A DNA stretch of 64,000 nt from Candidatus Kerfeldbacteria bacterium (GTDB lineage Bacteria > Patescibacteriota > Patescibacteriia > UBA10025 > JAHIVO01), in the NCBI GenBank assembly GCA_016214565.1, contig JACROE010000002.1, positions 728,007 to 792,006 on the forward strand. The letters run 5' to 3'. The position numbers and the translations under genes are program-made. Positions 10,626 through 60,552 of the stretch are shown here, in pieces. Each line of letters opens with the position of its first letter. The stretch's first letter is position 1. Below the pieces are notes generated by a model, which did no database searches, was not told where the DNA came from, and saw nothing but the letters and a program-made list of their open reading frames with translations.

Positions 10626-11417
10626 ATGCCCAACGGCGGCGGACAAATCGACCTGAAACACTGGCTCCAAGAACATCGGGAAATCTCCGATGAGGATTTT
10701 CGGTTCCTGATTGGGCATTCTCTCAGCCATCTTCGCATTCCTTTGACCGGAGTCCTGGGCTATCTGACGATGCTCGTCGAAGGGGACTTCAAGGCGCGAG
10801 AATTCTCCACAATTCACAAGTCGCTCAAAGAAACAGTACAGGAAGCCCTCGATACGCTAAGTGATGTTATGAAATTGAGGATTGCCTACGCGCGACAATT
10901 TGCACCGAAGACCAAGCAAAACAGCGCAAAGAAAGGACTAAAAAGAGTACTGCATTTCGAAGACGATAAGATGCTCACAAAGATATACCGAGTACGATTC
11001 GAACTGGATGGACTGCAGTACGAACCGCGAGAAACTCCCGCGCCCGATCCAGTAGCTTTAGTGAAAAGCGTTAAACCCGACCTCATCCTCATGAGTGTCA
11101 TTATGCCAGAAATGGATGGGTTTAGCGCGACCAGATTACTGAAGGGCGATCCGGAGACGCGAAACATTCCTTTATTATTCCTGACAAATCTCGGACAAAA
11201 GGAAGATATCATTAAGGGAATGAGCCTTGACGCGGTCGATTACTTGGTCTCTGCGCATTACACTCCCTGGCAGGTCGTCGACCGAGTGCGAGAGGTGTTG
11301 AAACTACCCAGACTCAAAAGAGATGAAAAGCTCTATCCGCCATTACCGACTCAGGGTAGTCGGGTGCCAAGGTACCAGGACATTCCGAAGGATGAAACGA
11401 TTAACCGTGCGGCATAG
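10626..11417 (+). CDS. HisKA-like (DHp H-box) domain fused to a degenerate receiver (REC) domain; no HATPase domain
   Basis: The H-box is HSLSHLRIPLTGVLGYL. The REC-like C-terminus is DLILMSVIMPEMDGFSATRLLK...LLFLTNLG...DAVDYLV, where the phospho-acceptor Asp position reads Ser and the conserved Lys before Pro is missing. Confidence 0.55.
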   Translation: MPNGGGQIDLKHWLQEHREISDEDFRFLIGHSLSHLRIPLTGVLGYLTMLVEGDFKAREFSTIHKSLKETVQEALDTLSDVMKLRIAYARQFAPKTKQNSAKKGLKRVLHFEDDKMLTKIYRVRFELDGLQYEPRETPAPDPVALVKSVKPDLILMSVIMPEMDGFSATRLLKGDPETRNIPLLFLTNLGQKEDIIKGMSLDAVDYLVSAHYTPWQVVDRVREVLKLPRLKRDEKLYPPLPTQGSRVPRYQDIPKDETINRAA

Positions 11418-15967: not shown

Positions 15968-18900
15968 GTGAAAGATACACTGAAAAAAAATAAAAATTCA
16001 CTTTTGGGCGTCTTTGGGTTTTTGCTTATCGTGGCAATTGTTGGCGCGGCGGGCTGGCTTGCCGTACCGGAAACGAGCGCGCAAGTGAATCTGGATCCAA
16101 ATCTCGGTACTACGTTTGGTTTGGGAACGGCGGATCTATTGTCCACGGTGATTAACATTGTTCAGTGGGCGCTTGGATTCCTTGGTTTGATTGCGGTCAT
16201 ATTTATCATGTATGGCGGTTTTGTCTGGATGACGGCGGCCGGCAATCAGGAAAAGGTGGAAAAAGCCAAGAAGATTATTACGCGGGCGGTGATTGGTCTG
16301 GTGATTGTCCTGTTGGCTTGGGCCATCGTTACCTTTATCGTTGACCGAGCGCTTGATCTGACGGGTGGCAATGGCAGTAGTTGTACGGATGGTGATGTGA
16401 ATGGATGCTATCTGTGCTCAAGTGGCTCATGGGTGTATCAAAATGCGTGGCCGGGCTGTAATGCGGGCGGGGCTAATTTCTTTGATGTCGTGGATACGTA
16501 CCCAGCGGACGGGCAGACTGGCGTGTATCTCTGTAGTATCGTTCAGGCGGAATTTAATGGGAATATTGATGCGGCTACGGTTCCGGGCGCGGCGTTTGTC
16601 TATGTGAACGGCGGCGGTCAAAATGGCGATGCCTGTACTGCTAACACCGATTGTGCGTCTGGCGTTTGTGCGGCTACTTGCCAGGGGAATTCAGTGCCAG
16701 GCAATTGGAACGCCAGCGGCGATACGTTAGAATTTTTGCCTAGCCAAGAGCATTTGCCGAACACCATTTATCAGGTTTATTTATGCGGCAGTGGGGCGGG
16801 CAATCCTGACTGCACCAGCCAGATAGAGGAAGACGCAGCGACACCGAGACAATTTATCGGTGAAATCTGGTTCTTCACGACCGGCAATTCGACGCTGAAT
16901 GAACCGCCTGAGGTGACGGCCATCTATCCGGCTGACGCGGCTGCCAATATTTGTCTGAATACGACTATTGCGGCGAATTTCAGCCAGCCGATTCGCAAGG
17001 CATCGCTCAATGCCAATACGGTGCAATTCACCACCGGCGGCGGACCGGTTGGTTTACGCACACCTTTTAGCATCCCTAGCACGTGGGATTCTTTCTCGAC
17101 CCGGCCGAGCAATGCCATGACCGCTGGCGCGGAATATAATGTCAAACTTATTGCTGGCACACCTGGCAACACGGATCCGAATAACGGCATCATGGACGTC
17201 TGCCTGAATCATTTGGATGGTGATTATAATAATAATGAAGACGGCAGCCCGGGTGATGATTTCATGACTATCAATAATGAGCCGAGCGGCGGTGAAGTGG
17301 CGCCGTGGAATTTCTTCGCGGATACCGACACCACCAATATCGAGTGCACCCCGGAGATCAGCAGTATCGTTCCGGCCAGTCAGCGGTATGATGCTGATCC
17401 CGGCATCACCATCAATGGCAGCAATCTCTCCATCAACGGCGATATCCGATTTGAATTGAACGTGATGCACGACAACCGCTGCATGGATGTGAATGGCACG
17501 CCCAATCAAGCTTGTGTCGCGAGTTGGACCGGCGATCAAATCAGTACGCGCATTCCTGCTGGACCAGTTGCCTTTGCCGGTGAATCACCCTCGGCTGGTG
17601 CGGCTGACGGTAATGTGCGCGTGGAGATCGGCGCGGGCGATGATGAGAAGAGTAATACTTACGCATTCGACGTTTCCAGTCCGCAGATACGCCGGGCCTT
17701 AGGCATCAATAATCAGGCGCATGGCGGCATCAGCCAGGCGGTCAAGCTCGAACGGCGCACGGGGAACGCCAATGACGGTTTTGGAGCACCTGGTACCGTT
17801 GAGTTTTTCAATATTTCTACCCAGGCACGAATGCCGGCGGATACGCTGAATTGCAGCACCACCTGGACTAATAATTACGCGTTGATTAAAGTACCCGATT
17901 TATCTAGTATCGGCGTGACCGCGTGCGACACTTCAATTTACAGCTGGTATGACTGCCCCACCGCAGTGCCAAATTCGGTGGTTGGCATTCAGTTATTTGG
18001 CGCAGGCGGCGCTCAGCCGAGCAACATTATTAAATTTATTTATACGACAGAAACGCCCGGACCAGTGCTCTGTGAAGTGGTGCCTGAGTGTGGCAATGCC
18101 GGAGCGGCAATAACCTTAACCGGTGAGGCGTTTGGCGCATCTCAGGGGAGCGGGCGGGTGTGGATTTCATCGCCGCCAGTTTCCGCCCCGGTAACCGGTT
18201 GGAACGAGGGTACCATCACCGCCACCGTGCCAAATCTGCGGAATGGCGTGCATGAGGTGAACGTTGAAGATGATAATGGCAAATCATCATACTCCATGGA
18301 TTTTCAGATTCCGTGCGGCGACATTCCTCAGGTCGTAGAAAATGCCAGTTGCGCCGCAACCTGCAATGGAGGACCGAACGATGGAAATTTGTGCAGCGAC
18401 GATAGTCAGTGTCCGGGTGGCGCTTGTCAGATCTCCATGGCGTCCCCGAATCCCTATAAAGGTACTGATGACGTGTGCGTGAACGCCATGTTTGGCGCGC
18501 GATTTACCGTGCCGATGAATACCGGTACATTCAATGCGAATATCATTTTGGAGAGTTGCGGCAATGATAGTTCCTGCGCTGCACCGGTGGCCGTCACGCA
18601 TAATATGGGAACTTTTGGTGCCCCGCTGAATGAACGATTTATCATGCAGCGCACCGTCGCAGGGGTGCCGACTGATCTGGATCCAAATACCTACTATCGT
18701 GTGACCATTCGCCGTCAAGTTGAGAGTACAACTGGCGCGCGAATGAACGCAGATTATGTGTGGCTGATTAAGACCAAGGCTGACACCGGCCCCTGTCCGG
18801 TGGAGAATGTTATGGTCACGCCGGGAAATGCGGTGCTCTATAATATCGGGGATACAGAACCATATCTCGCTACTGCGATTGGTCCGAATTGTGCCTTGCT

Positions 18901-21900
18901 TGATTCCAGTGATTACACGTGGTCATGGACATCTGATAGCGCCATCATCGCGTCAGTTACGGGCAGCACCACAGAAAATGAGACTGCCACTGGCAATGCG
19001 CTGGGCACCACGTATATTCGTGCCTCAACCGAAGGAAAATCAGGTAGGGGAAAACTGAAAGTTGACCCTGCGTCATGTGCGTTTAATCCGACACGGTGTG
19101 CTGATCCGGATCAGGACGGGGTGAATGAGTGCGCGGGAAGCCGGTGTGATTTATTGTCGGATCGTTGTGTGCCGGTGATTGCTGATTATAATGAAGACGG
19201 CCAGATGATCTCGCCTCAGACCGGCATTGCCGGGTCGTTTGTCACCATCGAGGGATGCTATTTTGGCACGGCGCGGGGGACGGTAAATTTCGGTGGTACG
19301 CCGGGTGTATACGAATGTACCAATGCCTGGTCAGACCATTCCATCACTGTTTCTGAGCCGGGCAATCCAGTTGGTACATATCTGATTGACGTACGTCGTC
19401 CCGATGGCCGATGTTTAGGTGGCACCAATGATGGTTTGAGTTGCGTGAATAATAGCGTCTGTACCGGCGGGGGTGTTTGTACCACCTATGCCACCACGGA
19501 CAATAGTCCCTATGGCGCAAATCAGAATAATATTGGCGTCTACTACTTTAGCGTGGGTAACGTCTGCTCCGGCATCTGCGTGGGCGGCGCCAATGCCAAC
19601 CAAGCTTGTCAGAATAATGCCAACTGTGCCAGTAATAATTGCGCGCCTGGCGTTCCGGCTCCAAGCGGCGTGGCGCCCGGCATTTGTCCGCCACTCAATC
19701 CTGATTCAGGACGAGAGGGGGCAAATGTATATATCGAAGGAAAGAATTTCAATCCGCCGACGCTTAATCCAGCCACCACGCGCGTGTATTACCATAGTGG
19801 TTTAGCAGATACCCATACGGCTATTACGACCCGTGGCCAAGCCTGGGCGGATACTGAGATTAATCGATCACGCGTTCCGGCGGGCACCGTTACTGGCGGC
19901 GTGAGCGTTCAGGTAAATAATTGCCCATCAAATAGTGTTACCTTTAGGGTGAGTTGTGATAGAAATAGCCAATGCTCCACTGGTTGTTGCCAAGCCAACC
20001 AATGCGTGGCTTCAGCAAATTGCAGTTCGGGTACACCAGGGCAATTGTGCCAGTTGACTGCGAATAATCCTTTCTGTCAGGTTGGACCGGTGATTCCCGC
20101 TGGCGACTACCGTTGTATTGATCCGGCAGGCCACCGCCAGCCCAATGCACCGGCTGGGGCTACCTATCCACCGGCGGCGGTTGATGATTGCCGAACCTGT
20201 TGCTATCCTGGCCAAATTTCATCAACTGGCTTAACCTGCTCGGTCAATTTGCCGGCTTCGCAAACAGCCTGCACGGGTGCGAACCGTGGATTGTACTGTG
20301 GCTGTACCGGTGACGCGCAATGTGGTGGCAGTACCGCTTGCGGTTCTGACACCTGCTGCCACGGACGGCCAACGGTCGTCAATACTGAACCGCCATCACC
20401 GTCGAATTGTCGCAATATTCGTTTCCAAGTTGATTTCAGCGAAAAGATGGATGCGAGCTCGTTTGTGATTGGGGCTGATTATAACGCTCCGCAAGCAGAT
20501 GAGAGTGTCTTCCTCTATGACGCGACGAATAACACCACGGTAGCTGGGACGATTAAAGCATATCCGCTTGGATTTTATTTGTATCCGAGTGTGGCACTGA
20601 CTGCGGGGCATACGTATCGAATATTCATTCGGACTGAATTAGTCAAAAGCGATTTGGGCATTGCCATGTCGAGCGTGCCGGGCTGGCATTCTGAGACCTG
20701 GGTGATTAATGGTGGGGCGCAAATTTGTAGGATTGCCGGATTGAGAACTATCGTTATGGATGAGAATGGGTTTGGACAATATCCGCCCCAGATTCCAAAT
20801 TTTTCTTGTGGATTCAGCGGGTGTGATCCGGGGGATATTTTTGCCACTCTAGAAGGTGCCAATTTACTATTATTAGTTGACGCACTTGATCAAAATGGGA
20901 CCCCCATCAGCGGTGGCGCTGATCCGATCGATTATACGTGGAGTGAGACGGATCCCAGAAATGTATTTACGCCAAATTATGATCCGGGCCCACCCTTCAC
21001 GCCTGGCTGTCCGGCCAATCAACCGAGTAATTTTTATTGTATTATTACTTCAGATAATCATACTGGGCTAGGGCATCTCAATGTGACTGCGGACGGTTCG
21101 GTGACGTCATTTGGTGATCTGGGTACTTATAGCGGCAGTGTACCGATTCGCGCTTCTTTGTGCTCGCGGTCATGGCCAAATCCGCGTGTACCGGATAATG
21201 ACGTGTTCCCATTTGAGGACACGAGCTATCATTTTGCGCTGTGGTATTGTGCTGAGGATGGTTTAGCCTTACTCCGCCCAACGACGGAAGCTGTGATCAA
21301 ATCCAATGTTCCTTCTGTTCCTCAGGAAGATGAGTTGGTACGAGAATTCTTCTTCTTGCGTGATGGGAGCACCGATGCTATTGGCGTCCGGGTCATGGAG
21401 AATGAGCAGAAATTATCTCCGACGCAGTGGTATCGCGCGCAATTTGGACCAGCCGCTCCTGAGCCGCAGCCATTGACCGTGGATGGGTATCCGGCAGTTC
21501 GCGCTGGTCGGACGGTGTATGTCGCTGCTACTAATTTATCAGGCGGTACCGTGTACGCAAATATTTATTTGATGTCCTATAATGACGGCGCTTCGAGTGA
21601 GACCATTGAAATATTTAATCGATTACTTGCAAACTGGGAATTTAATACTAATTTAACCGGTGCACAAAAAGGTCAGCTGCAGCGCGATCTTCAGCGTTTG
21701 TCTGATTTGAGTGATATCGCGGAGAAGCTCATAAATTACAAAGGCGCCAATCAGAAATTCCCAGAGTTATCCGGTGGGACGTATGTTAAAACTGTCAGTA
21801 ATTCATTATGGCCATCGTGGCAAGATACGCTGGGCGTGGCCTTGGGCGGAAATTTACCGACTGACCCGGTCAATGATTTTGAGGCTTGTACGCCTAATGA

Positions 21901-24109
21901 TGAGACGACCTGCTGGAATGATGCGACTAAAAAGTACCAATGTAATGTAGGTTCAAAATTATATCAGTATCACACCAATGAAGCCGGTGGCATTGCCAAC
22001 CTCTTCACCTTCCTCGAATATGATGGTCCAGGAAACTGGCGGACTGGATTGACCAATCCATGCGCGGGTATGACTGAAGCGGCATGTAATTGTTTCAATT
22101 ATCAATACGCAGTAACCGGAACTAATTTGGATCGGAATGGTCCAATTATCACCGCGGTGAATGGAAATCCTCCGGGAACAACTTTGGTTGTCGCTGGTAC
22201 CACTAATTTAGTGGTCACCGCCACTGATGCCGACAGTGGCGTGAATAGCGTTGAATTTTATATTGACGGAATTCGCCAGGCGACTGATACCGATGGCACC
22301 AATGGATGGAGCTGGAGCATGAATACCGGCGCCTTTCCAGATGGCAATCATAGCTTGGGAATCAAGGCATACGATGTGGCTGGCAATTATTCTGATGCTA
22401 ATTTTACCCTTGATATCGATAATGCTGGTGGTGGTGACGCGAGCGCTCCGTTTGCCCGCATTATCAGTCCCACTGCAGGACAGACCGTCAGCGGCATGGT
22501 CTCCATACAGACTGAGGCAAGCGATAATTATGATATCGTGTCCATGACGATTGAAGTGCGACCGAACACATGTAGCTCGGGACAGATATTCGCAGATACA
22601 GTGCCGTTCGGCGGCATCCAAACCAATGCATCTTTCAATTGGTCATGGGATAGTAGTGCCAGCGCTTCAGGCACGTATTGCATTTGGTTGGATGTGATTG
22701 ACGGGGTTCGACACGGGTATGCCACGGCACTCGTGACTTTGAGCAATCTTGATGCCATCAATCCGACGGTGAATATCACCGCGCCAGTTGCCAGCCCGCC
22801 CTCAATTTCGGGAGAGGTAAATATTACCATGACCGCCAGCGATAATATCGGCGTGGCGCGGGTGGATGTGTATATTGACGGCCAATACCGTGGCCCTGCA
22901 TCGTTAAGTGGGGGGAATTATATCTGGCCCTGGAATACGCGGGCGTATCCGAATGGTGATCATGAGTTGCGGGCGTATGTGTATGATCTTTCCGGAAACA
23001 CTGGTTCAGCGATACCAATCGTGGTGAATGTGGATAATATTGAGAATGATATTATAGCGCCTACGGTATCCTTTATAGCGCCGACCCCCGCTTCTGGTAC
23101 GGCCATCGAAGGCGTGATAACGATTCGTGTTGACGCCCAAGATGATAAGCAAGTAGATCGGGTAAATTTCTACGTGGACTATCTCCAGCGATCGATTGAT
23201 ACGGATGGTTCGAATAATTGGGAATGGACATTTGACACCACCGGCATGACTGATGGTTGGCATCGGATACAGGTAGATGCACTAGATGTGGCGGGGAATC
23301 GCAGCGAGTACATCGAGGTCAGGCTGGGCATCAATGTCCCTGGCGGACCATTGATCACGAATGCCGGGATAGATCCCGCATCAGGTCCGGCCGGAACTCC
23401 ATTCTGCATCCAGGCTGATGTGACCAGTCCTACGGGGGTGGCCAGTGTTGTGGCGAGTATTCAGCAGCCTGACGAAATTGAACTTGACCGGGTTACCTTA
23501 ACGTTAACCGGTGGAGATACATATCAAGGTTCGTGGACGTCGCCGATTGGATCGCCGGATCAGAGTTATTATGTGGATATTATTGCTGAAAGCACTGACG
23601 GACGCGTCAGTGAGTATGAGAATATCCACGGCGCTACGGGTTCATGCGGTGGCGGCGGTGGCAGTGCCCCAGTTATCACGAGTGTGTTGAGTCGGTCGCT
23701 GCAGGAGGATACCGCGTTTACCTACACTATCACCGCGACGAATACTCCCACGTCATATAATGCGGTTGGTATGCCGGCCTGGATGACTCGATCGGGGAAT
23801 GTGTTATCAGGAACACCGCCAACTCCGGGTACATTTACGGTAGCCATTTCCGCAACCAATGCTTTTGGCACTGATACGAGAAATTTGACCGTTACTGTTA
23901 CGGCCGCATCCAGTGCTTGCGATTTCTGTGAGTTTGTCGGACCAAATAATTGTACAACTTATACGACCTCACTCAGTTGTAATACCGCCGGGTGTTATTG
24001 GAGAAATTTCCCTGCACCGGCGCGATGTGTTGATTATCCTTGCTCAGCCTACAATGGTGCCCAATCCGCTTGTGAAGCGCGATCAAGCTGTTCCTGCACT
24101 GCGACGTAA
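15968..24109 (+). CDS. Giant secreted/surface protein (2713 aa) with N-terminal TrbC/VirB2-type (T4SS-pilin-like) double-TM domain, many Cys-rich modules and Ig-like/Big-type repeats
   Basis: GTG start. The N-terminus ...TVINIVQWALGFLGLIAVIFIMYGGFVWMTAAGNQEKVEKAKKIITRAVIGLVIVLLAWAIV matches the pilin-like signature found at the N-terminus of CPR giant proteins. The C-terminal half has repeated ~100-aa modules (VDxYIDG..., NIT..., DN... patterns) consistent with Ig-like folds. The 8.1-kb ORF is uninterrupted. Confidence 0.8.
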   Translation: MKDTLKKNKNSLLGVFGFLLIVAIVGAAGWLAVPETSAQVNLDPNLGTTFGLGTADLLSTVINIVQWALGFLGLIAVIFIMYGGFVWMTAAGNQEKVEKAKKIITRAVIGLVIVLLAWAIVTFIVDRALDLTGGNGSSCTDGDVNGCYLCSSGSWVYQNAWPGCNAGGANFFDVVDTYPADGQTGVYLCSIVQAEFNGNIDAATVPGAAFVYVNGGGQNGDACTANTDCASGVCAATCQGNSVPGNWNASGDTLEFLPSQEHLPNTIYQVYLCGSGAGNPDCTSQIEEDAATPRQFIGEIWFFTTGNSTLNEPPEVTAIYPADAAANICLNTTIAANFSQPIRKASLNANTVQFTTGGGPVGLRTPFSIPSTWDSFSTRPSNAMTAGAEYNVKLIAGTPGNTDPNNGIMDVCLNHLDGDYNNNEDGSPGDDFMTINNEPSGGEVAPWNFFADTDTTNIECTPEISSIVPASQRYDADPGITINGSNLSINGDIRFELNVMHDNRCMDVNGTPNQACVASWTGDQISTRIPAGPVAFAGESPSAGAADGNVRVEIGAGDDEKSNTYAFDVSSPQIRRALGINNQAHGGISQAVKLERRTGNANDGFGAPGTVEFFNISTQARMPADTLNCSTTWTNNYALIKVPDLSSIGVTACDTSIYSWYDCPTAVPNSVVGIQLFGAGGAQPSNIIKFIYTTETPGPVLCEVVPECGNAGAAITLTGEAFGASQGSGRVWISSPPVSAPVTGWNEGTITATVPNLRNGVHEVNVEDDNGKSSYSMDFQIPCGDIPQVVENASCAATCNGGPNDGNLCSDDSQCPGGACQISMASPNPYKGTDDVCVNAMFGARFTVPMNTGTFNANIILESCGNDSSCAAPVAVTHNMGTFGAPLNERFIMQRTVAGVPTDLDPNTYYRVTIRRQVESTTGARMNADYVWLIKTKADTGPCPVENVMVTPGNAVLYNIGDTEPYLATAIGPNCALLDSSDYTWSWTSDSAIIASVTGSTTENETATGNALGTTYIRASTEGKSGRGKLKVDPASCAFNPTRCADPDQDGVNECAGSRCDLLSDRCVPVIADYNEDGQMISPQTGIAGSFVTIEGCYFGTARGTVNFGGTPGVYECTNAWSDHSITVSEPGNPVGTYLIDVRRPDGRCLGGTNDGLSCVNNSVCTGGGVCTTYATTDNSPYGANQNNIGVYYFSVGNVCSGICVGGANANQACQNNANCASNNCAPGVPAPSGVAPGICPPLNPDSGREGANVYIEGKNFNPPTLNPATTRVYYHSGLADTHTAITTRGQAWADTEINRSRVPAGTVTGGVSVQVNNCPSNSVTFRVSCDRNSQCSTGCCQANQCVASANCSSGTPGQLCQLTANNPFCQVGPVIPAGDYRCIDPAGHRQPNAPAGATYPPAAVDDCRTCCYPGQISSTGLTCSVNLPASQTACTGANRGLYCGCTGDAQCGGSTACGSDTCCHGRPTVVNTEPPSPSNCRNIRFQVDFSEKMDASSFVIGADYNAPQADESVFLYDATNNTTVAGTIKAYPLGFYLYPSVALTAGHTYRIFIRTELVKSDLGIAMSSVPGWHSETWVINGGAQICRIAGLRTIVMDENGFGQYPPQIPNFSCGFSGCDPGDIFATLEGANLLLLVDALDQNGTPISGGADPIDYTWSETDPRNVFTPNYDPGPPFTPGCPANQPSNFYCIITSDNHTGLGHLNVTADGSVTSFGDLGTYSGSVPIRASLCSRSWPNPRVPDNDVFPFEDTSYHFALWYCAEDGLALLRPTTEAVIKSNVPSVPQEDELVREFFFLRDGSTDAIGVRVMENEQKLSPTQWYRAQFGPAAPEPQPLTVDGYPAVRAGRTVYVAATNLSGGTVYANIYLMSYNDGASSETIEIFNRLLANWEFNTNLTGAQKGQLQRDLQRLSDLSDIAEKLINYKGANQKFPELSGGTYVKTVSNSLWPSWQDTLGVALGGNLPTDPVNDFEACTPNDETTCWNDATKKYQCNVGSKLYQYHTNEAGGIANLFTFLEYDGPGNWRTGLTNPCAGMTEAACNCFNYQYAVTGTNLDRNGPIITAVNGNPPGTTLVVAGTTNLVVTATDADSGVNSVEFYIDGIRQATDTDGTNGWSWSMNTGAFPDGNHSLGIKAYDVAGNYSDANFTLDIDNAGGGDASAPFARIISPTAGQTVSGMVSIQTEASDNYDIVSMTIEVRPNTCSSGQIFADTVPFGGIQTNASFNWSWDSSASASGTYCIWLDVIDGVRHGYATALVTLSNLDAINPTVNITAPVASPPSISGEVNITMTASDNIGVARVDVYIDGQYRGPASLSGGNYIWPWNTRAYPNGDHELRAYVYDLSGNTGSAIPIVVNVDNIENDIIAPTVSFIAPTPASGTAIEGVITIRVDAQDDKQVDRVNFYVDYLQRSIDTDGSNNWEWTFDTTGMTDGWHRIQVDALDVAGNRSEYIEVRLGINVPGGPLITNAGIDPASGPAGTPFCIQADVTSPTGVASVVASIQQPDEIELDRVTLTLTGGDTYQGSWTSPIGSPDQSYYVDIIAESTDGRVSEYENIHGATGSCGGGGGSAPVITSVLSRSLQEDTAFTYTITATNTPTSYNAVGMPAWMTRSGNVLSGTPPTPGTFTVAISATNAFGTDTRNLTVTVTAASSACDFCEFVGPNNCTTYTTSLSCNTAGCYWRNFPAPARCVDYPCSAYNGAQSACEARSSCSCTAT

Positions 24110-43482: not shown

Positions 43483-44991
43483 ATGTATCCACAAAAAGCA
43501 ACGATTTTTTTAGCAGGAGGAATTACACTGTTAGTTGGCGCTGCCCTAGGTCTCCTGTTTGAACTCCCGGTTGAAGCCATGATTGCTATTGGCGCTTCGG
43601 GGCTGGTTATTGCTGTTGTTCAACGTCGTTGGCGTGCCGGTTTACTGGTGGGTATTTGCTTGATTACGTTCGCGCTGGGGATGTGGCGATCATACGCGAG
43701 TATGACTGCGGCAGAGCAAGATGGACTGGTGCCATATCACGGTCAAACTATTTCGTTCATTGGTGTCGTTGACGCCGAGCCTGACGTGCGCAGCGATCAA
43801 GTAAAGTTGACCATTGCGGTGCAATCCGATGATGATGGTAATTTATTATCTGGTCTAATATTAGTCTCAGCGTTGCTGTACCCCGAATATCAGTATGGCG
43901 ACCGGCTCTGGATACGGTGCCGCATCGAGCAGCCGGGGATTATCCAGTCGGATGACGGGCGCGATTTTAATTACGGTCGGTATGTATCACTGTCACATAT
44001 CTATAGCGTTTGTTTCCGGCCGCAGATCAAACTGATCGACCGCGGGCAGGGCAGTCCACTGATATCAGGATTGATTCAGGTTAAGCAACAGTTTATTGAG
44101 CGTTTGACGCGGGTGATGGGTGAACCAGAGGCGTCGTTTGCCGCTGGATTGCTCGTTGGTGCCAAACAATCATTACCCGAGTCGGTGCGGGCTGCCTTTC
44201 GTATCACTGGCACGTCCCACATCATTGCGTTGTCTGGGTATAATATTTCAATTATTGCAATCTGCATTCAGAAATTATGCAGCACGTTTTGGTTGTCTCG
44301 CCGAACTGCTTTTTGGGTTGCCGTGGGAGTGATTATTTTTTTCGTGGTGATGACTGGTGCGGCTGCCTCAGTCACTCGAGCGGGGATCATGGGCGGCCTG
44401 GTGTTGCTGGCTCGGCAGTTGGGGAGGATGAGCCGCATTGCCCAAGCCCTTGTTTTGGCTGCGTGTATCATGATATGGATGAATCCGCCGGTACTTCTCT
44501 ATGACATCGGCTTCCAGCTGTCATTTCTCGCCACATTCGGCCTGGTATATCTTTCGCCATTGATTGAGCGATGGCTGAGATGGGTACCCGACCTGTTTGC
44601 CTTGCGCAGCAGTTTGTCTGCTACACTGTCTGCCATCGTCATGACCTTGCCGATCATTGTATATTATTTTGGCACTGTATCTCTGATTGCCCCGCTAGTT
44701 AATGTTTTAATATTGCCATTTATTCCGATTGCGATGGGCTTTGGGTTTGTCACGGGGCTGCTTGGGTTTGTGGTACCCATGCTGGCAGCATGGTTTGGTT
44801 GGCTGACCTGGGCATTGTTGCACGGCATACTTGTTCTCATCCGGTGGTGGGCTGGGTTGCCGTTTGCAGCAGTGCATCTTCCGGTCATTTCCATTGCAGT
44901 TTTAATTATCGCGTATCTCGTATTGGTGGTATGGCTGTGGTGGCTGCATAAAAAACCGCCGGCTGATGCACAACCGGCGGCGGCTCTTTGA
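43483..44991 (+). CDS. comEC: ComEC/Rec2-family DNA internalisation channel (DUF4131 + competence domain), without the metallo-beta-lactamase domain
   Basis: Polytopic membrane protein. The conserved competence-domain region is ...AAGLLVGAKQSLPESVRAAFRITGTSHIIALSGYNISII... Confidence 0.75.
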   Translation: MYPQKATIFLAGGITLLVGAALGLLFELPVEAMIAIGASGLVIAVVQRRWRAGLLVGICLITFALGMWRSYASMTAAEQDGLVPYHGQTISFIGVVDAEPDVRSDQVKLTIAVQSDDDGNLLSGLILVSALLYPEYQYGDRLWIRCRIEQPGIIQSDDGRDFNYGRYVSLSHIYSVCFRPQIKLIDRGQGSPLISGLIQVKQQFIERLTRVMGEPEASFAAGLLVGAKQSLPESVRAAFRITGTSHIIALSGYNISIIAICIQKLCSTFWLSRRTAFWVAVGVIIFFVVMTGAAASVTRAGIMGGLVLLARQLGRMSRIAQALVLAACIMIWMNPPVLLYDIGFQLSFLATFGLVYLSPLIERWLRWVPDLFALRSSLSATLSAIVMTLPIIVYYFGTVSLIAPLVNVLILPFIPIAMGFGFVTGLLGFVVPMLAAWFGWLTWALLHGILVLIRWWAGLPFAAVHLPVISIAVLIIAYLVLVVWLWWLHKKPPADAQPAAAL

Positions 44992-44999
44992 AATTATTG

Positions 45000-46001
45000 T
45001 TAGGCAACGAATTCGCCTTTGACTGCGGCGTGGCTGGCCTGGAGCCGCTTAAGGAATACCGCTTGGGCTGCTGCAACATTTTCTGATTTGCCCAACCAAA
45101 CCTTCAGCGGCGGTTCCTGCAGCGCTCGGGCGTAGGAGAAGCTGATTTTCCATGGGCCATCATTGGCTTTTGCCACCGCGTTCAGATTACTGGTGGCTTG
45201 TTCAGGCGTTTGGCCGCCGGACAGGAAGACAATGCCCGGTACCTGTTGTGGGACTGATTTTTTGAAACAACGGATAGTAGCGGTTGCAATTTCCTCGGGT
45301 GAGGCTTGAGTTGAGCACTCTTTTCCACTAATGACCATGCTGGATTTCAGAATGACGGCGGTAAGGTCAACTCGATAATTTTCTAATTCTCGGAACATGA
45401 TTTCGAGGGTTTGCGTGGTCACCGCTTCACTGCGCGCCAGGTCGTGCGGTCCGTCGATCAATACTTCAGGTTCAACGATGGGCACGATACCGGCCTCTTG
45501 GGCGAGGGCGGCGTAGCGGGCGAGGGCATGGGCGTTGGCTTGCATGCAGGCGACGGTCGGGAGCCAATCACCGTCAATGGTTATGACCGCGCGCCATTTG
45601 GCAGCACGGCAGCCCTGCTGATAAAAAGCAGCAAATCGATCGCGGAGTTTATCCAGTCCATCCGTTACTTTTTCTCCCGGGTAGAGGGCAAGGTTATGAG
45701 CTCCCTTATCCACTTTGATGATCGGAATGACACCATGCTTCTTGAGTAGTTCAAGAAAGGGGGTGCCATCATCGGCAGACTGAGTCAGCGTTTCCTCGAA
45801 GAGGATAATGCCTGATAGATAGTTGCCGATATCCGGCGTGGTGAAAAAAAGGTTCCGGTATTGACGACGCGTTTCCTCGGTCGATTCGAGGCCGATAGAT
45901 TCGAGGCGCTTGGTGGCGGTCGAGACCGATTCGTCTGCTGCCAGAAATCCCTTATGGTCGGCGACTAAGGCTTGGGCAATGTCATGGAGTGATTGGTTCA
46001 T
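45000..46001 (-). CDS. fba: Fructose-bisphosphate aldolase, class I
   Basis: HKGFLAADES (substrate-binding motif), IVEPEVL and the Schiff-base Lys region. The start was chosen at the internal Met (MNQSLHDIAQAL...), 4 nt after the glpX stop. The ORF-track start at 46070 would overlap glpX. Confidence 0.85.
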   Translation of the reverse strand: MNQSLHDIAQALVADHKGFLAADESVSTATKRLESIGLESTEETRRQYRNLFFTTPDIGNYLSGIILFEETLTQSADDGTPFLELLKKHGVIPIIKVDKGAHNLALYPGEKVTDGLDKLRDRFAAFYQQGCRAAKWRAVITIDGDWLPTVACMQANAHALARYAALAQEAGIVPIVEPEVLIDGPHDLARSEAVTTQTLEIMFRELENYRVDLTAVILKSSMVISGKECSTQASPEEIATATIRCFKKSVPQQVPGIVFLSGGQTPEQATSNLNAVAKANDGPWKISFSYARALQEPPLKVWLGKSENVAAAQAVFLKRLQASHAAVKGEFVA

Positions 46002-46005
46002 AATT

Positions 46006-46956
46006 TTATGATGATGCTTTATATGCGTCGTGATGGGTCGAAATATATCGAGCAGTGCCGGAAGATCCACGTAAGACTAACGAGTGCGTTTCGATGAATC
46101 GTTGGCGGGTGATGACTCCACGGAGGAGGGGTCCATCAATAATGCCGGTGGCAGTAAACGTCAATTGTCGGCCGTGGGCTAAATCCTCGGCGGTATAAAT
46201 TTTTTTGGTGTCATATCCCGCGTTAGCGATCACTGCAGCATGCTTGTCATTGGGCGGGGTAAATCGGGCGAGCAATTGGCCCCCCATAATTTTGACCGGC
46301 GCAGCGGCGAGGACTGCCTCGGTGCTTCCGCCGATGCCCATGACCATATCTATGTCATGTTCCGGCATGCAGGTAGCTACGGCTGTGGCCACGTCGCCGT
46401 CTGATACCATTCGGACCCGGGCACCAGCGGCACGGAGTTCCTCGACCAGGGACGTATGGCGGGGGCGGTCAAGTACCATGACGGTTATCTCTCGCGTGTC
46501 TTTGCCCAGCTTTTGAGCGACCTTTAATACGTTTTCGGTGGGAGTGGCATCGAGATCAATCACGCCCGCTGCTTCTGGACCAACTGCGATTTTGTTCATG
46601 TAGGTATCGGGCGCGCGAAAAAGCGAGCCGACTGGACCAGCCACGATCACGGCCATCGCATTGTACCGGCCGTGGGCTACGCTGTCGGTGCATTCCAGAG
46701 GATCGACGGCGATTTCCATAGCGGGACCGGCGCCGGTTCCAATAGTCTCGCCGACGTAGAGTTCGGGCGCTTCATCCTTTTGCCCCTCACCAATCACCAC
46801 GGTGCCAGCAAAATCAATCTGGTTAAATCGAGAGCGCATGGCATCGACTGCCGCTCCGTCGGCTTTCTTTGCTTCACCATAGCCAATCCACTCGGCCGCG
46901 GCGATTGCCGCAGCCTCAGTAACCCGAACAAATTCCAGTGCGAGATTTCTGTCCAT
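46006..46956 (-). CDS. glpX: Fructose-1,6-bisphosphatase class II (GlpX)
   Basis: 316 aa with typical GlpX blocks: EAAAIAAAEWIGYG..., VVIGEGQKDEAP and DPLECT. Confidence 0.9.
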   Translation of the reverse strand: MDRNLALEFVRVTEAAAIAAAEWIGYGEAKKADGAAVDAMRSRFNQIDFAGTVVIGEGQKDEAPELYVGETIGTGAGPAMEIAVDPLECTDSVAHGRYNAMAVIVAGPVGSLFRAPDTYMNKIAVGPEAAGVIDLDATPTENVLKVAQKLGKDTREITVMVLDRPRHTSLVEELRAAGARVRMVSDGDVATAVATCMPEHDIDMVMGIGGSTEAVLAAAPVKIMGGQLLARFTPPNDKHAAVIANAGYDTKKIYTAEDLAHGRQLTFTATGIIDGPLLRGVITRQRFIETHSLVLRGSSGTARYISTHHDAYKASS

Positions 46957-46990: not shown

Positions 46991-47842
46991 ATGTATATGA
47001 ATCAGAAAAAAATAAAGCAAATAATAGTTAGTGGCAGTTTTCTAATAGTATTGATTGCCTTTCTTTTTGTTACTCAATTGCAGCAGCGACCGGCTGGGGT
47101 TCGGGTAACATTTTTTGATATTGGCCAGGGAGACAGTGCGTTAATTCAAACTTCGGCAGGTTCTACTATTTTGATTGATGGGGGGCCTGATCGAACAATT
47201 TTAGAAAAGCTTGGTGCAGCGCTACCATTCTATGAACATTCGATTGACCTGATGATTCTGACGCATCCTCATGCCGACCATTTGAACGGACTACTGGCGG
47301 TGCTCGAGCGGTATGAGGTCAAGAATATTCTGTACACGGATGTCGCGTATGATGCACCACAATATGATGAGTGGCTACAGAGGCTCGAAAGTGTTTCAAG
47401 TAAAAAATTAATCGCTCATGCTGGTCAAACATTTACCTTTGATGAAGTGCAGCTTGAGGTACTCTATCCATTGTCCGATATGTCAGGGCAATCAATCGAT
47501 GATATCAACGAGTCATCTATCGTCGCGCGTCTAAGCTATCAAAATAATTCAATACTCTTCACGGGAGATGCCGGTGTGCCGACTGAGCAAGTACTCCTGA
47601 ATGCGGGAGTTGAACTTGAAAGCGATATTTTGAAAGTTGGACATCATGGGAGTGATACGTCGTCCTCAATTGTTTTTATTAATGCAGTCAGCCCTGCTAT
47701 TGCCGTTATTTCTTTGGGTAACAACACGTTTGGGCATCCGAAAGCCAGTGTTTTGAAGCGTCTGGAATACGTAGGTGCAGCGGTGAAACGCACCGATCAA
47801 CTGAGTGATATCGTGATTGAATTACCCCTTGACAAAAAATGA
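46991..47842 (+). CDS. Membrane-anchored metallo-beta-lactamase-fold hydrolase, equivalent to the C-terminal domain of full-length ComEC
   Basis: HPHADH metal-binding motif in ILTHPHADHLNGL. DIGQGDSALIQ is typical of the ComEC MBL domain. N-terminal TM helix. Confidence 0.75.
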   Translation: MYMNQKKIKQIIVSGSFLIVLIAFLFVTQLQQRPAGVRVTFFDIGQGDSALIQTSAGSTILIDGGPDRTILEKLGAALPFYEHSIDLMILTHPHADHLNGLLAVLERYEVKNILYTDVAYDAPQYDEWLQRLESVSSKKLIAHAGQTFTFDEVQLEVLYPLSDMSGQSIDDINESSIVARLSYQNNSILFTGDAGVPTEQVLLNAGVELESDILKVGHHGSDTSSSIVFINAVSPAIAVISLGNNTFGHPKASVLKRLEYVGAAVKRTDQLSDIVIELPLDKK

Positions 47843-47859
47843 TTAATATAGTACTATGC

Positions 47860-48121
47860 CAAGCTGTTTTGCTTATGGAAACATAAGTGAAATAGACGGA
47901 AAGATCAGTAATGATCTTTGACAATATATCTACGGAAGTTACATCAACTATACCAATAACAATCAATCGCTCACCCCGAAATTTTCGGGCGTGGAAAGGA
48001 GTATTCCTATGAACGTTTTGACGTTCGATATACCTTCGGGTATATGGCGTGCCAGGGCGCCTGTAAATCAATCCTGGAGAGTTTATAAAACTCGTCCACC
48101 TCGGAAAGGAGGTGAGCGATA
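47860..48121 (+). promoter_or_regulatory. Highly structured 5' leader (candidate riboswitch-like / translational-control RNA) with SD sequestration
   Basis: At least six local hairpins are visible, including GAACGT-tttg-ACGTTC, ATACC-ttcg-GGTAT (UUCG tetraloop) and GAGTTT-ata-AAACTC. An 8-bp long-range helix pairs CGCTCACC (47968-75) with GGTGAGCG (48111-18). A competing local hairpin pairs CACCTC (48097-102) with GAGGTG (48109-14) and covers the SD AGGAGG (48107-12). Confidence 0.4.
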
Positions 48122-49165
48122 ATGGTAAATACGGCAAAAATCGCAGCGTCTACTACAAAAGCAGTCGCTCGCGGTGTGCTGATTCGGAAACTTGCTTCGA
48201 CTGTCTTCTCTATGGTTCGAAAAACCCCAGTAATGGAGAATCTGATTTATCAGTTTGCTCTATTTGTGAGGTCGTTACCAGCAGGTGACGATATCGGAGC
48301 TGAGGTCATCAATACCATGCCAGAGGATCTGCGATCAATTGCAGAGCCGATCTGGCGCGAGATTAATCATCTTTCGGAGGAAGATATGAAGAACAGGTTT
48401 GGTCGGGGAAATCCCAATCAGCAAAACAAAGGCCAGGGAGAGCAATCTTCAGGCCAACAGCAAGTGAATCGTAGTCGACAGGATATTGAGCGAGCGCTAA
48501 CAACAATGGCAGCGCTTGATCAGAAATTCTCGGTGTTCTTGGGGGGGCTGCTTTCGGCAGAGCCGCCAGGGACACGGGAGATTATCCTGGAAGCGATTGG
48601 GCGGATTTATAAAACCGTCCCGTTGCTCACCGCATTTCTTACGCCCCTCTTGATCCGCAAGGAGCGAGAGGAAAAGGTAAGTCTCCTCGATGAATTGGTA
48701 CTCAATCCTCCGACTTCGGCAAAACCGAAAACGGAGCATCATGGTACTGATGCAACGAAAGCATTTACGGTACTGTCCTGGCTCCGCCTGGCAGACGAGA
48801 ATGCTTTCAAGAAAATCATGGAGATCATGACCTCAGAAGCAAACGATTCTGACAAGGATCGTCCGGCTTTCTATGCGTATTTGGCCGCGCTGCATCATCT
48901 CCAAAAAGATGAAGCCGTGGCGAATTTGCAAGCCGTTGCCGCGATTGATGATCTTGAAGCGCGTGCGAAGATGGTGGGTGTTAATCCTAACTGGAAGACC
49001 CAGCTGAAGCGCACTTTTGGGATCCATCGGGGCAAGGTCACACAGGAAATGGTCGATCGTGCGCGTATGCGTGCCGATGCCGCCGTTAAAGAACTTATGG
49101 ATTACCGTGAACGCACTCGGCGTCAGCGGGAAATCAGAAAGATGAATCGGAGTCAATATGTCTGA
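48122..49165 (+). CDS. Hypothetical protein (347 aa)
   Basis: ORF preceded by an AGGAGG SD. No recognisable domain. Confidence 0.5.
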   Translation: MVNTAKIAASTTKAVARGVLIRKLASTVFSMVRKTPVMENLIYQFALFVRSLPAGDDIGAEVINTMPEDLRSIAEPIWREINHLSEEDMKNRFGRGNPNQQNKGQGEQSSGQQQVNRSRQDIERALTTMAALDQKFSVFLGGLLSAEPPGTREIILEAIGRIYKTVPLLTAFLTPLLIRKEREEKVSLLDELVLNPPTSAKPKTEHHGTDATKAFTVLSWLRLADENAFKKIMEIMTSEANDSDKDRPAFYAYLAALHHLQKDEAVANLQAVAAIDDLEARAKMVGVNPNWKTQLKRTFGIHRGKVTQEMVDRARMRADAAVKELMDYRERTRRQREIRKMNRSQYV

Positions 49166-58844: not shown

Positions 58845-58919
58845 CGGGCCCAAGGGGATTTGAACCCCTGGTCTCCTCCGTGACAGGGAGGCGTGTTAAC
58901 CGGGCTACACCATGGGCCC
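58845..58919 (-). tRNA. tRNA-Asp (anticodon GTC), no encoded CCA
   Basis: The reverse complement folds as a canonical cloverleaf: GGGCCCA TG GTGT AGCCCGGTTA ACAC G CCTCC CTGTCAC GGAGG AGACC AGGGG TTCAAAT CCCCT TGGGCCC G. The anticodon loop CTGTCAC carries GTC. Confidence 0.85.
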
Positions 58920-60151: not shown

Positions 60152-60552
60152 TGGTGGAAGCGAGGGGTATTGCACCCCTGTCCATGATGTTCGCGGTATT
60201 CATTTCTACAAGTGTAGTTCGTTTGGATTTGGCAACCGCCTGGTAAAAGCGAACAAAAGTCCGGGCGGCTGTTCGTCACACCAATTGTCGAGAATACGCG
60301 GTGACGGCGCGCATTCCGTATCCCGAAAATGTCACTACGCTATACTATCGGGCGTTGTATAGGTAATGGCGGTTGGATGTATTATGCAACCGCGAGTGCC
60401 GGCATACGGAACGCCGAAGCGATCGTAGCCTTCACTTTTGAAACAAATGAATTGGCATTTGTATAGTGTTATCAGTTTGATTTACATCTCACGATAACAA
60501 GAGATGACTTGCCATGAATATCAACGTGCACCTGTCGATTTTTTCTGCTCCC
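60152..60552 (-). ncRNA. ssrA: tmRNA (ssrA), about 401 nt, adjacent to smpB
   Basis: The minus-strand RNA starts GGGAGCAGAAAAAATCGACAGG (compare E. coli GGGGCUGAUUCUGGAUUCGACGGG). It ends GGACAGGGGTGCAATACCCCTCGCTTCCACCA (compare GGACGCGGGUUCAACUCCCGCCAGCUCCACCA). The acceptor has a G3-U70 pair, the Ala identity element. A candidate tag ORF reads ...GCT ACG ATC GCT TCG GCG TTC CGT ATG CCG GCA CTC GCG GTT GCA TAA (ends ALAVA*). Confidence 0.6.

Follow-up and report, generated by a model that had tools for sequence, protein, structure and literature searches.

In a 64,000-nucleotide (nt) stretch of a Candidatus Kerfeldbacteria genome (candidate phyla radiation (CPR)/Patescibacteria; locus-tag prefix HZC01), hereafter the window, the gap in front of an operon of orphan and surface-protein genes encodes a genuine conserved, structured, cis-acting RNA on the plus strand, the fold of which is backed by covariation. 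It is a real, previously uncatalogued and lineage-restricted cis-regulatory RNA, and not a proven riboswitch. The element would form the roughly 260-nt 5' leader of the operon mRNA, transcribed from its own conserved promoter. Its predicted fold buries the Shine-Dalgarno (SD) sequence of the first gene of the operon in a long-range helix, and inside the folded domain lies a short open reading frame (ORF), sORF1, which has a conserved SD of its own. The explanation we favour, with a probability of about 0.55, is that this SD-sequestering leader is unlocked by translation of the upstream ORF (uORF) and by termination-reinitiation at the main gene.

Conservation and covariation of the leader

The leader lies in the 279-nt gap between an MBL-fold gene (46991-47842, +), which encodes the C-terminal domain of a split ComEC, and a 347-amino-acid (aa) ORF (48122-49165, +), here called the main gene. 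It was found in seven Kerfeldbacteria-like lineages, always between the conserved promoter and the same orphan gene: the window, L001, L002, L003, L005, L021 and L022, with L004 and L006 identical to L003 in this region. Relatives were reached by walking from the MBL gene and from two distant relatives of the orphan, and the gene order of the window was recovered in six further lineages, all with a homologous leader. The orphan proteins of these relatives share 72%, 34%, 30%, 26% and 16% identity with that of the window, the L002 contig ending before the gene. Between the window and L001 the intergenic region is 88% identical, whereas the flanking genes are 70-75% identical and their third codon positions 43-49% (saturated), which places the leader under stronger constraint than the surrounding proteins.

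Folding of 47860-48135 (+) gave a minimum free energy (MFE) of -92.8 kcal/mol, compared with -63.3 +/- 5.1 kcal/mol for 200 dinucleotide shuffles (z = -5.83, 0/200), while the opposite strand of the same segment folds more weakly (z = -3.7). The original prediction, made from the sequence alone, of a densely structured leader is thereby borne out, and seven hairpins were found. In paired columns all 15 of the differences between the window and L001 preserve pairing, four of them as double changes, and unpaired columns differ three times as often as paired ones. A hand-curated helix table for the seven lineages holds 50 pair positions, in which 230/230 cells are canonical and 17 positions are compensatory, located in upper HP1, P3, P5, P6, P7 and three pairs flanking the core of P2 (elements listed below). 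On a model-based alignment, 80.9% of cells are paired compared with 71.0 +/- 1.6% in shuffled alignments, and 14 double-change pairs were counted compared with 8.0 +/- 1.9, neither value being reached in 500 shuffles; with slid partners as controls, 35-45% of cells pair. These counts are conservative, since P6 of L021 and L022 is still misplaced in that alignment; in the MAFFT alignments the closing helix and P6 are out of register for some sequences. Covariation and conservation upstream of orthologous genes, on which the original prediction had staked its case, were thus both found.

A covariance model built for the 3' domain scores 80-166 bits on the plus strand of the seven lineages and at most 17 bits on the minus strand. 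This bears on a listed 143-aa ORF (47706-48137, -) that spans the whole region on the opposite strand and could in principle have been the source of the conservation. Indels of 1, 4 and 1 nt separate the window from L001 within it, and as a gene it was rejected because the frame is interrupted in relatives, leaving pieces of 31 and 70 aa in L001 and of 37, 46 and 67 aa in L022; the likelihood that it accounts for the conservation is negligible.

The elements of the leader and its immediate surroundings are as follows.

47829-47857 (+): promoter-like element, TTGACA, 17-nt spacer, TACTAT; sigma-70-like, 10/12 matches in a consensus scan.
47864-47895 (+): HP1, GAAA-capped hairpin of 14 bp at the predicted transcript 5' end.
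47900-47919 (+): HP2, 8-bp hairpin AAAGAUCA-GUAA-UGAUCUUU with a GNRA loop.
47918-47924 (+): UUGACAA heptamer directly 3' of HP2, identical in 7/7 lineages despite variable surroundings.
47925-47965 (+): A-rich linker ending AAYAAUMAA, variable in length and sequence, with indels.
47966-47975 (+): 5' strand of the closing helix P2, anti-SD-like AUCGCUCACC, a perfect 10-bp complement of its partner 48111-48120.
47975-47989 (+): P3, local hairpin CCCGAA-AUU-UUCGGG, three covarying pair positions.
47993-48001 (+): SD1, GGAAAGGAG, putative ribosome-binding site of sORF1, 7 nt before AUG 48009.
48009-48122 (+): sORF1, 37 codons, MNVLTFDIPSGIWRARAPVNQSWRVYKTRPPRKGGER, with a TAA stop (48120-48122) that overlaps the main-gene ATG (TAATG / UAAUG).
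48011-48026 (+): P5, hairpin GAACGU-UUUG-ACGUUC, retained in the window, L001, L002 and L022, with a U-A to A-U change in L022.
48028-48045 (+): P6, 7-bp hairpin AUAUACC-UUCG-GGUAUAU, five covarying pair positions.
48046-48061 (+): P7, hairpin GGCGU-GCCAGG-GCGCC, with G-C to A-U and C-G to U-A changes.
48073-48077 (+): CCUGG, candidate pseudoknot partner of the P7 loop CCAGG (48052-48056).
48079-48093 (+): P8, hairpin GAGUUU-AUA-AAACUC, in the window and L001 only, with a 4-bp analogue in L005; not part of the core.
48096-48102 (+): proximal C-rich strand CCACCUC, with GUGGA 47991-47995 (P2b) or GAGGUG 48109-48114 (P9) as partners.
48106-48120 (+): main-gene SD AAGGAGGUGA fused to the P2 3' strand GGUGAGCGAU.
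48122-49165 (+): main gene, first of the operon, encoding a 347-aa orphan protein; start backed by N-terminal ortholog alignment.

The promoter-like element overlaps the 3' end of the MBL-fold gene, and its pattern TTGACA-17-TAnnnT stands at a constant distance to HP1 in 7/7 lineages, including two with an IS200-like gene upstream. Three positions of the upper HP1 stem covary (C-G/U-A/G-C, U-A/A-U and A-U/G-C), and this hairpin is likely a 5' stabiliser. P3 covaries over five to six lineages (GAA/UUC, GGA/UUC, UU/AA, GCA/UGU, UUUU/AAAA), and 91% of the P7 cells are paired on alignment A10. P6 is the UUCG-loop hairpin that had been noticed at the outset; its loop alternates between UUCG and GAAA among lineages, both stable tetraloops, and further tetraloops cap HP1 (GAAA) and HP2 (GUAA). 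An alleged perfect palindrome, CCGAAATTTTCGG, proved to be a 13-nt sequence of two 6-nt arms around a single central T. The CCAGG/CCUGG pairing is a perfect 5-bp complement in 5/7 lineages, invariant and hence without covariation, and is missing from L003 and L005. The 29-bp extended closing stem of the MFE fold was rejected, because its UUUUCGGG/CUCGGAAA part is not conserved (61% of cells paired) and P3 covaries instead. No terminator-like hairpin was found on the plus strand.

The core of HP2 (GAUCA..UGAUC) is retained in five lineages, collapsed to AGAUCU in L021 and replaced by a different hairpin in L022. As a DNA operator HP2 was rejected, given that the arm spacing shrinks from 4 to 2 nt in L002 and that the hairpin is collapsed in L021; these changes fit an RNA hairpin or a dispensable element better. 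The adjoining UUGACAA heptamer (47918-47924) is identical to the -35 core of the promoter. Among the seven lineages no conserved complement of it was found, and as the -35 of a second promoter it was rejected for want of a conserved -10 box downstream.

The leader occurs once in the window. When GTDB genomes and JGI metagenomes were scanned for the HP1-HP2 DNA signature, a single true locus came up, L006 (= L003), the eight other hits (L007-L014) being chance matches, and the leader RNA is absent from the next-closest MBL neighbours, L015-L020. For the orphan protein, word-based searches found two to three relatives, while an exhaustive HMMER search listed eleven sequences, comprising the window's own and ten distant relatives.

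Predicted sequestration of the main-gene ribosome-binding site

The pairing originally proposed around the main start was recovered. The AGGAGG SD lies at 48107-48112, 9 nt upstream of ATG 48122; the long-range pairing of CGCTCACC (47968-47975) with GGTGAGCG (48111-48118) is present and extends to 10 bp (47966-47975/48111-48120), forming P2; and the local pairing of CACCTC (48097-48102) with GAGGTG (48109-48114) can likewise be read in the sequence. In the predicted folds the long-range helix does bury the SD, as had been claimed. P2 is part of the MFE fold of 5/6 lineages, its 5' strand has a probability of being unpaired of at most 0.10 in the five lineages tested, an SD directly following P2 is mostly paired (0.11-0.17 by the same measure), and the main-gene SD region 48106-48120 has a mean value of 0.12. 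The P2 core CUCACC/GGUGAG is invariant, bar one U-G in L002, and the pairs at its flanks covary (G-C/A-U/G-U, C-G/U-A and U-A/A-U).

What did not hold was the further step of reading two alternative pairings as a translational expression platform. Of the local CACCUC/GAGGUG hairpin only the 4-bp CACC/GGUG core is kept across lineages, with zero compensatory change, and when the P2 5' strand is blocked the resulting local-hairpin fold is 4-11 kcal/mol less stable than the P2 fold. Even then the SD is not freed, being taken up by the local hairpin. With the SD paired in either fold, the two pairings are both 'off' rather than an ON/OFF pair, and since the SD is paired even without the P2 5' strand, some external agent would be needed for its opening. 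For the proximal C-rich strand, 74% of the P2b cells and 76% of the P9 cells are paired, with compensatory changes in neither.

These results weigh directly on the idea of a true riboswitch or RNA sensor, in which the P2-closed domain would be an aptamer for a metabolite, an ion or another signal that shifts P2 against the alternative pairings. Control would then fall on initiation at sORF1 or at the main gene, sORF1 serving as a relay like that of the ppe2 B12 element, so that a riboswitch combined with a uORF relay has a precedent (PMC11260477). In favour of this idea, the fold is strongly conserved, covaries and has stable tetraloops; it keeps unpaired blocks (GURGAAAGGAG, the GCCAGG loop, GUAAA and CCUGG) and, in 5/7 lineages, a possible loop-to-3' pseudoknot; and the strand on the SD side has two potential partners in all lineages. 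However, a search of the whole window with Rfam 15 at the gathering threshold returned only a tRNA gene (58845-58919, -) and a tmRNA gene (60152-60552, -), both elsewhere in the window and unrelated to the leader, and 4227 Rfam models run against 47700-48300 at E <= 10 gave only two chance snoRNA hits far below threshold. Where a fixed aptamer architecture was looked for, P2, P3, P7 and several unpaired blocks proved to be kept, P6 and P8 are lost from L003 and L005, an additional hairpin occurs in L022 and the P4 hairpins of different lineages are non-homologous. An internal hairpin set that differs in this way is unlike a fixed ligand pocket. The SD is buried in both alternative pairings, the local one without covariation; the junction block conserved most strongly is at the same time an SD, which explains its conservation; and the element precedes one operon in one narrow clade, with genes that hint at no ligand. 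The proposal of an orphan riboswitch thus survives in its first half, a covarying structure without an Rfam match, while its switch logic is unsupported, and we regard a true sensor as unlikely. Quite improbable, too, is the specific version in which the P2-closed domain is the aptamer of a new riboswitch or sensor class restricted to one Kerfeldbacteria-like CPR lineage, responding to a small molecule or host-derived cue and acting on the surface-protein operon through the uORF relay.

An upstream open reading frame in the folded domain

SD1 and sORF1 had been overlooked in the original prediction. The most conserved block of the element is GURGAAAGGAG (47991-48001), within which GAAAGGA is the same in 7/7 lineages, each of them having an AUG 5-10 nt further on. 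The sORF1 frame that begins there is 27-50 codons long and open in 7/7 lineages, whereas the other two frames hold one to four stops each; it stays open to the main start (or, in L002, to the contig end) in 6/7. The chance of such an open frame is 0.10-0.44 per lineage. In the six lineages with the main start on the contig, translation would end -2 to +16 nt from that start: at 0 nt in the window, +6 nt in L001, +16 nt in L003, -2 nt in L021 and +12 nt in L022, while in L005 the sORF1 stop comes early and the end at +10 nt belongs to a second short ORF that begins immediately behind P2. AUG and GUAAA are 54, 54, 66, 48 and 51 nt apart, in every case a multiple of three despite the hairpin turnover in between.

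SD-like motifs are rare in this genome (about 7/37 ORF starts), so that two strong SDs in one leader stand out. Most ORF starts are not preceded by such a motif, and a TATAAT-like box stands 7-10 nt upstream of several of the ATGs (for example at 10626, 40779, 37892 and 53816), a pattern that suggests leaderless or SD-independent initiation may be widespread in the genome.

In L003 (7148-7192) and L005 (7735-7780) the closing helix and the main start are set apart by an insertion of about 40 nt, which duplicates the SD/AUG module and holds a small hairpin, a duplicated SD (GGAGGAGGUGAU / GGGGGGUGAU) and an ORF of 17-19 codons that overlaps the main start. The P2 3' strand in these two lineages serves this relay ORF, and the second SD, too, is complementary to the P2 5' strand, a U-A pair in L003 being C-G in L005.

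A conserved SD, AUG and open frame, together with a stop/start overlap typical of operon genes, would also be found if sORF1 were an ordinary 37-aa small protein gene coupled to the next gene, behind an unremarkable untranslated region and with the conservation reflecting the peptide; some residues do recur (MN.., AR.PV, KGGE). The substitutions argue otherwise. Between the window and L001, sORF1 has eight replacement codons and one synonymous-only codon, with changes distributed 5/5/5 over the codon positions. Synonymous sites are frozen: the codon is identical at 28/29 conserved residues, compared with 47.5% for the neighbouring genes (P = 1.4e-8). Amino-acid changes, in contrast, are common and drastic (I to P, I to G, V to E) and track base-pair compensation, I to P and I to G being the two sides of compensating base pairs. 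The recurring residues fall on conserved motifs of the RNA, namely the loop GCCAGG, GUAAA and the SD, the L002 frame is shifted relative to homologous nucleotides, and the 150 nt upstream of sORF1 are equally conserved. Purifying selection on the sORF1 amino acids was not seen, nor was a conserved stalling peptide or series of regulatory codons: the peptides diverge widely, and shared residues coincide with RNA motifs. As judged by these comparisons, sORF1 is evolving under RNA-level, not protein-level, constraint, and the small-protein explanation is highly improbable.

A further possibility is a leader that does not switch at all, folding instead for mRNA stability, fixed low translation or the binding of a protein (for example the orphan product), with sORF1 a by-product or weakly used. 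HP1 falls precisely on the predicted transcript 5' end; HP2, together with the invariant heptamer UUGACAA, resembles a sequence-specific recognition site; a 3' block of 47 nt does not differ at all between the window and L001, which exceeds structural need; and the C-terminus of the orphan protein is basic and helical. No protein partner can be named, however, and such a leader leaves unexplained why SD, AUG and open frame are kept where the orphan proteins are just 16-34% identical, and why the frame changes its length in multiples of three. We consider it rather improbable.

In the explanation we favour, the leader would fold with HP1 at its 5' end, followed by HP2, the A-rich linker and a multi-hairpin domain closed by P2, in which the anti-SD-like CUCACC would pair with GGUGAG in the SD region of the main start, about 135 nt away. 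With the main SD locked in P2, direct loading of ribosomes there would be blocked. Ribosomes would instead load at the internal SD1 and begin sORF1 at AUG 48009; the translating ribosome would traverse hairpins P5-P8 and the P2 3' strand, melting P2, and would terminate on or beside the main start, where the main gene would be initiated by termination-reinitiation or from the transiently exposed SD. Because sORF1 translation would open P2, expression of the operon would be gated by the initiation and translation efficiency of sORF1. The uORF would thus offer a ribosome-driven route to open P2 without a ligand. The SD, start, frame and end point of sORF1 are conserved; that it is translated and coupled to the main gene we infer, and temperature, a factor, a metabolite or translational status may act as a modulating signal.

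Several observations weigh against this explanation. In L003 and L005 the extra main-gene SD is only partly paired, with probabilities of being unpaired of 0.59 and 0.35, and in L005 sORF1 stops 58 nt before the main start, so that the model needs the relay through a second ORF. The open-frame probabilities given above are not independent between lineages, of which there are seven in all, the window and L001 being close relatives. As the P2 core never varies, the P2 pairing rests on invariance plus three flanking covariations, and the best alignment is hand-curated, automatic alignments misplacing some helices. With few SDs in the genome, the purine-rich motifs could be purely structural. Finally, the proposed gating could be no more than constitutive coupling.

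Operon context and known regulatory leaders

The main gene is followed on the plus strand by a second orphan gene and then by genes for large dockerin, NAGPA/FG-GAP, beta-helix, fn3/FecR and adhesin-like domain proteins. The main-gene orphan protein has no match in Pfam, PHROG or NCBIfam, searches of the first two operon proteins and their relatives in Pfam, PHROGs and NCBIfam yielded no function, and the AlphaFold model of the orphan protein (predicted local distance difference test score 39.9) was unusable. As listed at NCBI, the orphan protein (P0001, 317 aa) begins at ATG 48212; ortholog N-termini (L001, L003, L005) and the SD 9 nt upstream support ATG 48122 (347 aa) as the probable true start.

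In L005 and L022 an IS200-like gene is located between the MBL gene and the leader, and leader and promoter stay with the orphan gene; in L022 the promoter lies inside the 3' end of the IS200-like gene. The two genes, of the Y1 transposase family (L005 6941-7480, L022 2146-2697), share just 33% protein identity, and the gene may be either an old resident or the product of repeated insertion at one spot.

Further upstream, ComEC is split into a Competence/DUF4131 part (43483-44991, +) and the MBL part (46991-47842, +). Between the halves, on the opposite strand, are a class-I aldolase (45000-46070) and a GlpX FBPase (46006-46956), an arrangement also kept in L003, L005 and L018 and partly in L004. 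The aldolase ORF (45000-46070, -, GTG start) overlaps the GlpX ORF (46006-46956, -) by 65 nt, and aldolase orthologs are 337 aa long compared with the 356 aa listed; the true aldolase start is probably further downstream than the listed GTG. The window also holds a very large ORF of 2713 aa (15968-24109, +).

Attenuators of the ermC and cat type and the SecM and MifM sensors depend on a conserved stalling peptide or on drug-dependent arrest, and on a pair of alternative hairpins, one of them leaving the SD free. As in those leaders, an ORF precedes a buried SD here, and the position of the ribosome would decide its exposure; unlike in those leaders, the peptide is not conserved and both pairings bury the SD. 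A conserved, covarying multi-helix domain with the SD in its closing helix recalls translational 'OFF' riboswitches, from which the leader differs in matching none of the 4227 Rfam models, in its variable hairpins, in its narrow clade and in offering no ligand clue from the genes.

A closer parallel is the ppe2 leader of M. tuberculosis, where a B12 riboswitch controls a translated uORF, uPPE2 (Kipkorir et al., NAR 2024, PMC11260477). uPPE2 is essential for PPE2 and acts through termination-reinitiation at an AUGA overlap (PMC11260477). Both cases combine a structured leader with an upstream ORF that has its own SD and a stop overlapping the main start, as AUGA in ppe2 and as UAAUG in the window; uORF-dependence of main-gene expression is proposed for both, and the downstream genes include surface or secreted proteins of unclear function. 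In contrast, the ppe2 leader senses through a known cobalamin aptamer, for which ligand binding is proven, whereas no known aptamer was matched here; PPE2 is without an SD of its own, whereas here a long-range helix is predicted to lock the strong SD of the main gene; and the uORF here lies inside the structured domain. The ppe2 case shows that sensor and uORF relay can coexist in one leader.

In Salmonella, translation of mgtQ, a small ORF in the mgtC-mgtB intergenic region, remodels stem-loops and thereby permits mgtB translation (Choi et al., mBio 2021, PMC8092293). As proposed here, a short ORF overlaps alternative stem-loops that sequester a downstream ribosome-binding site, and the ribosome is the unfolding agent. 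Unlike sORF1, mgtQ is very short and needs specific acidic codons; the Kerfeldbacteria ORFs have 27-50 codons and show no conserved codon or peptide motif beyond those that the RNA accounts for, and the helix that sequesters the SD bridges about 135 nt.

In our literature searches, no report of a cis-regulatory RNA native to CPR/Patescibacteria came to light. The weight of the present finding is limited by its narrow distribution and by orphan target genes; its strengths are solid comparative support and an understudied phylum. The leader precedes an operon of orphan and adhesin-like genes in a genome where most genes appear leaderless or SD-less, and it would enlarge the small set of bacterial leaders in which a uORF is the key to a long-range SD lock. 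Were a ligand or host cue to act on it, the orphan operon would be signal-responsive, and a sensor would then control dockerin, FG-GAP and adhesin-like proteins, which are candidate host-attachment factors. Regulation of surface proteins in CPR episymbionts is poorly understood, and the leader provides a concrete, testable case of post-transcriptional control in CPR/Patescibacteria.

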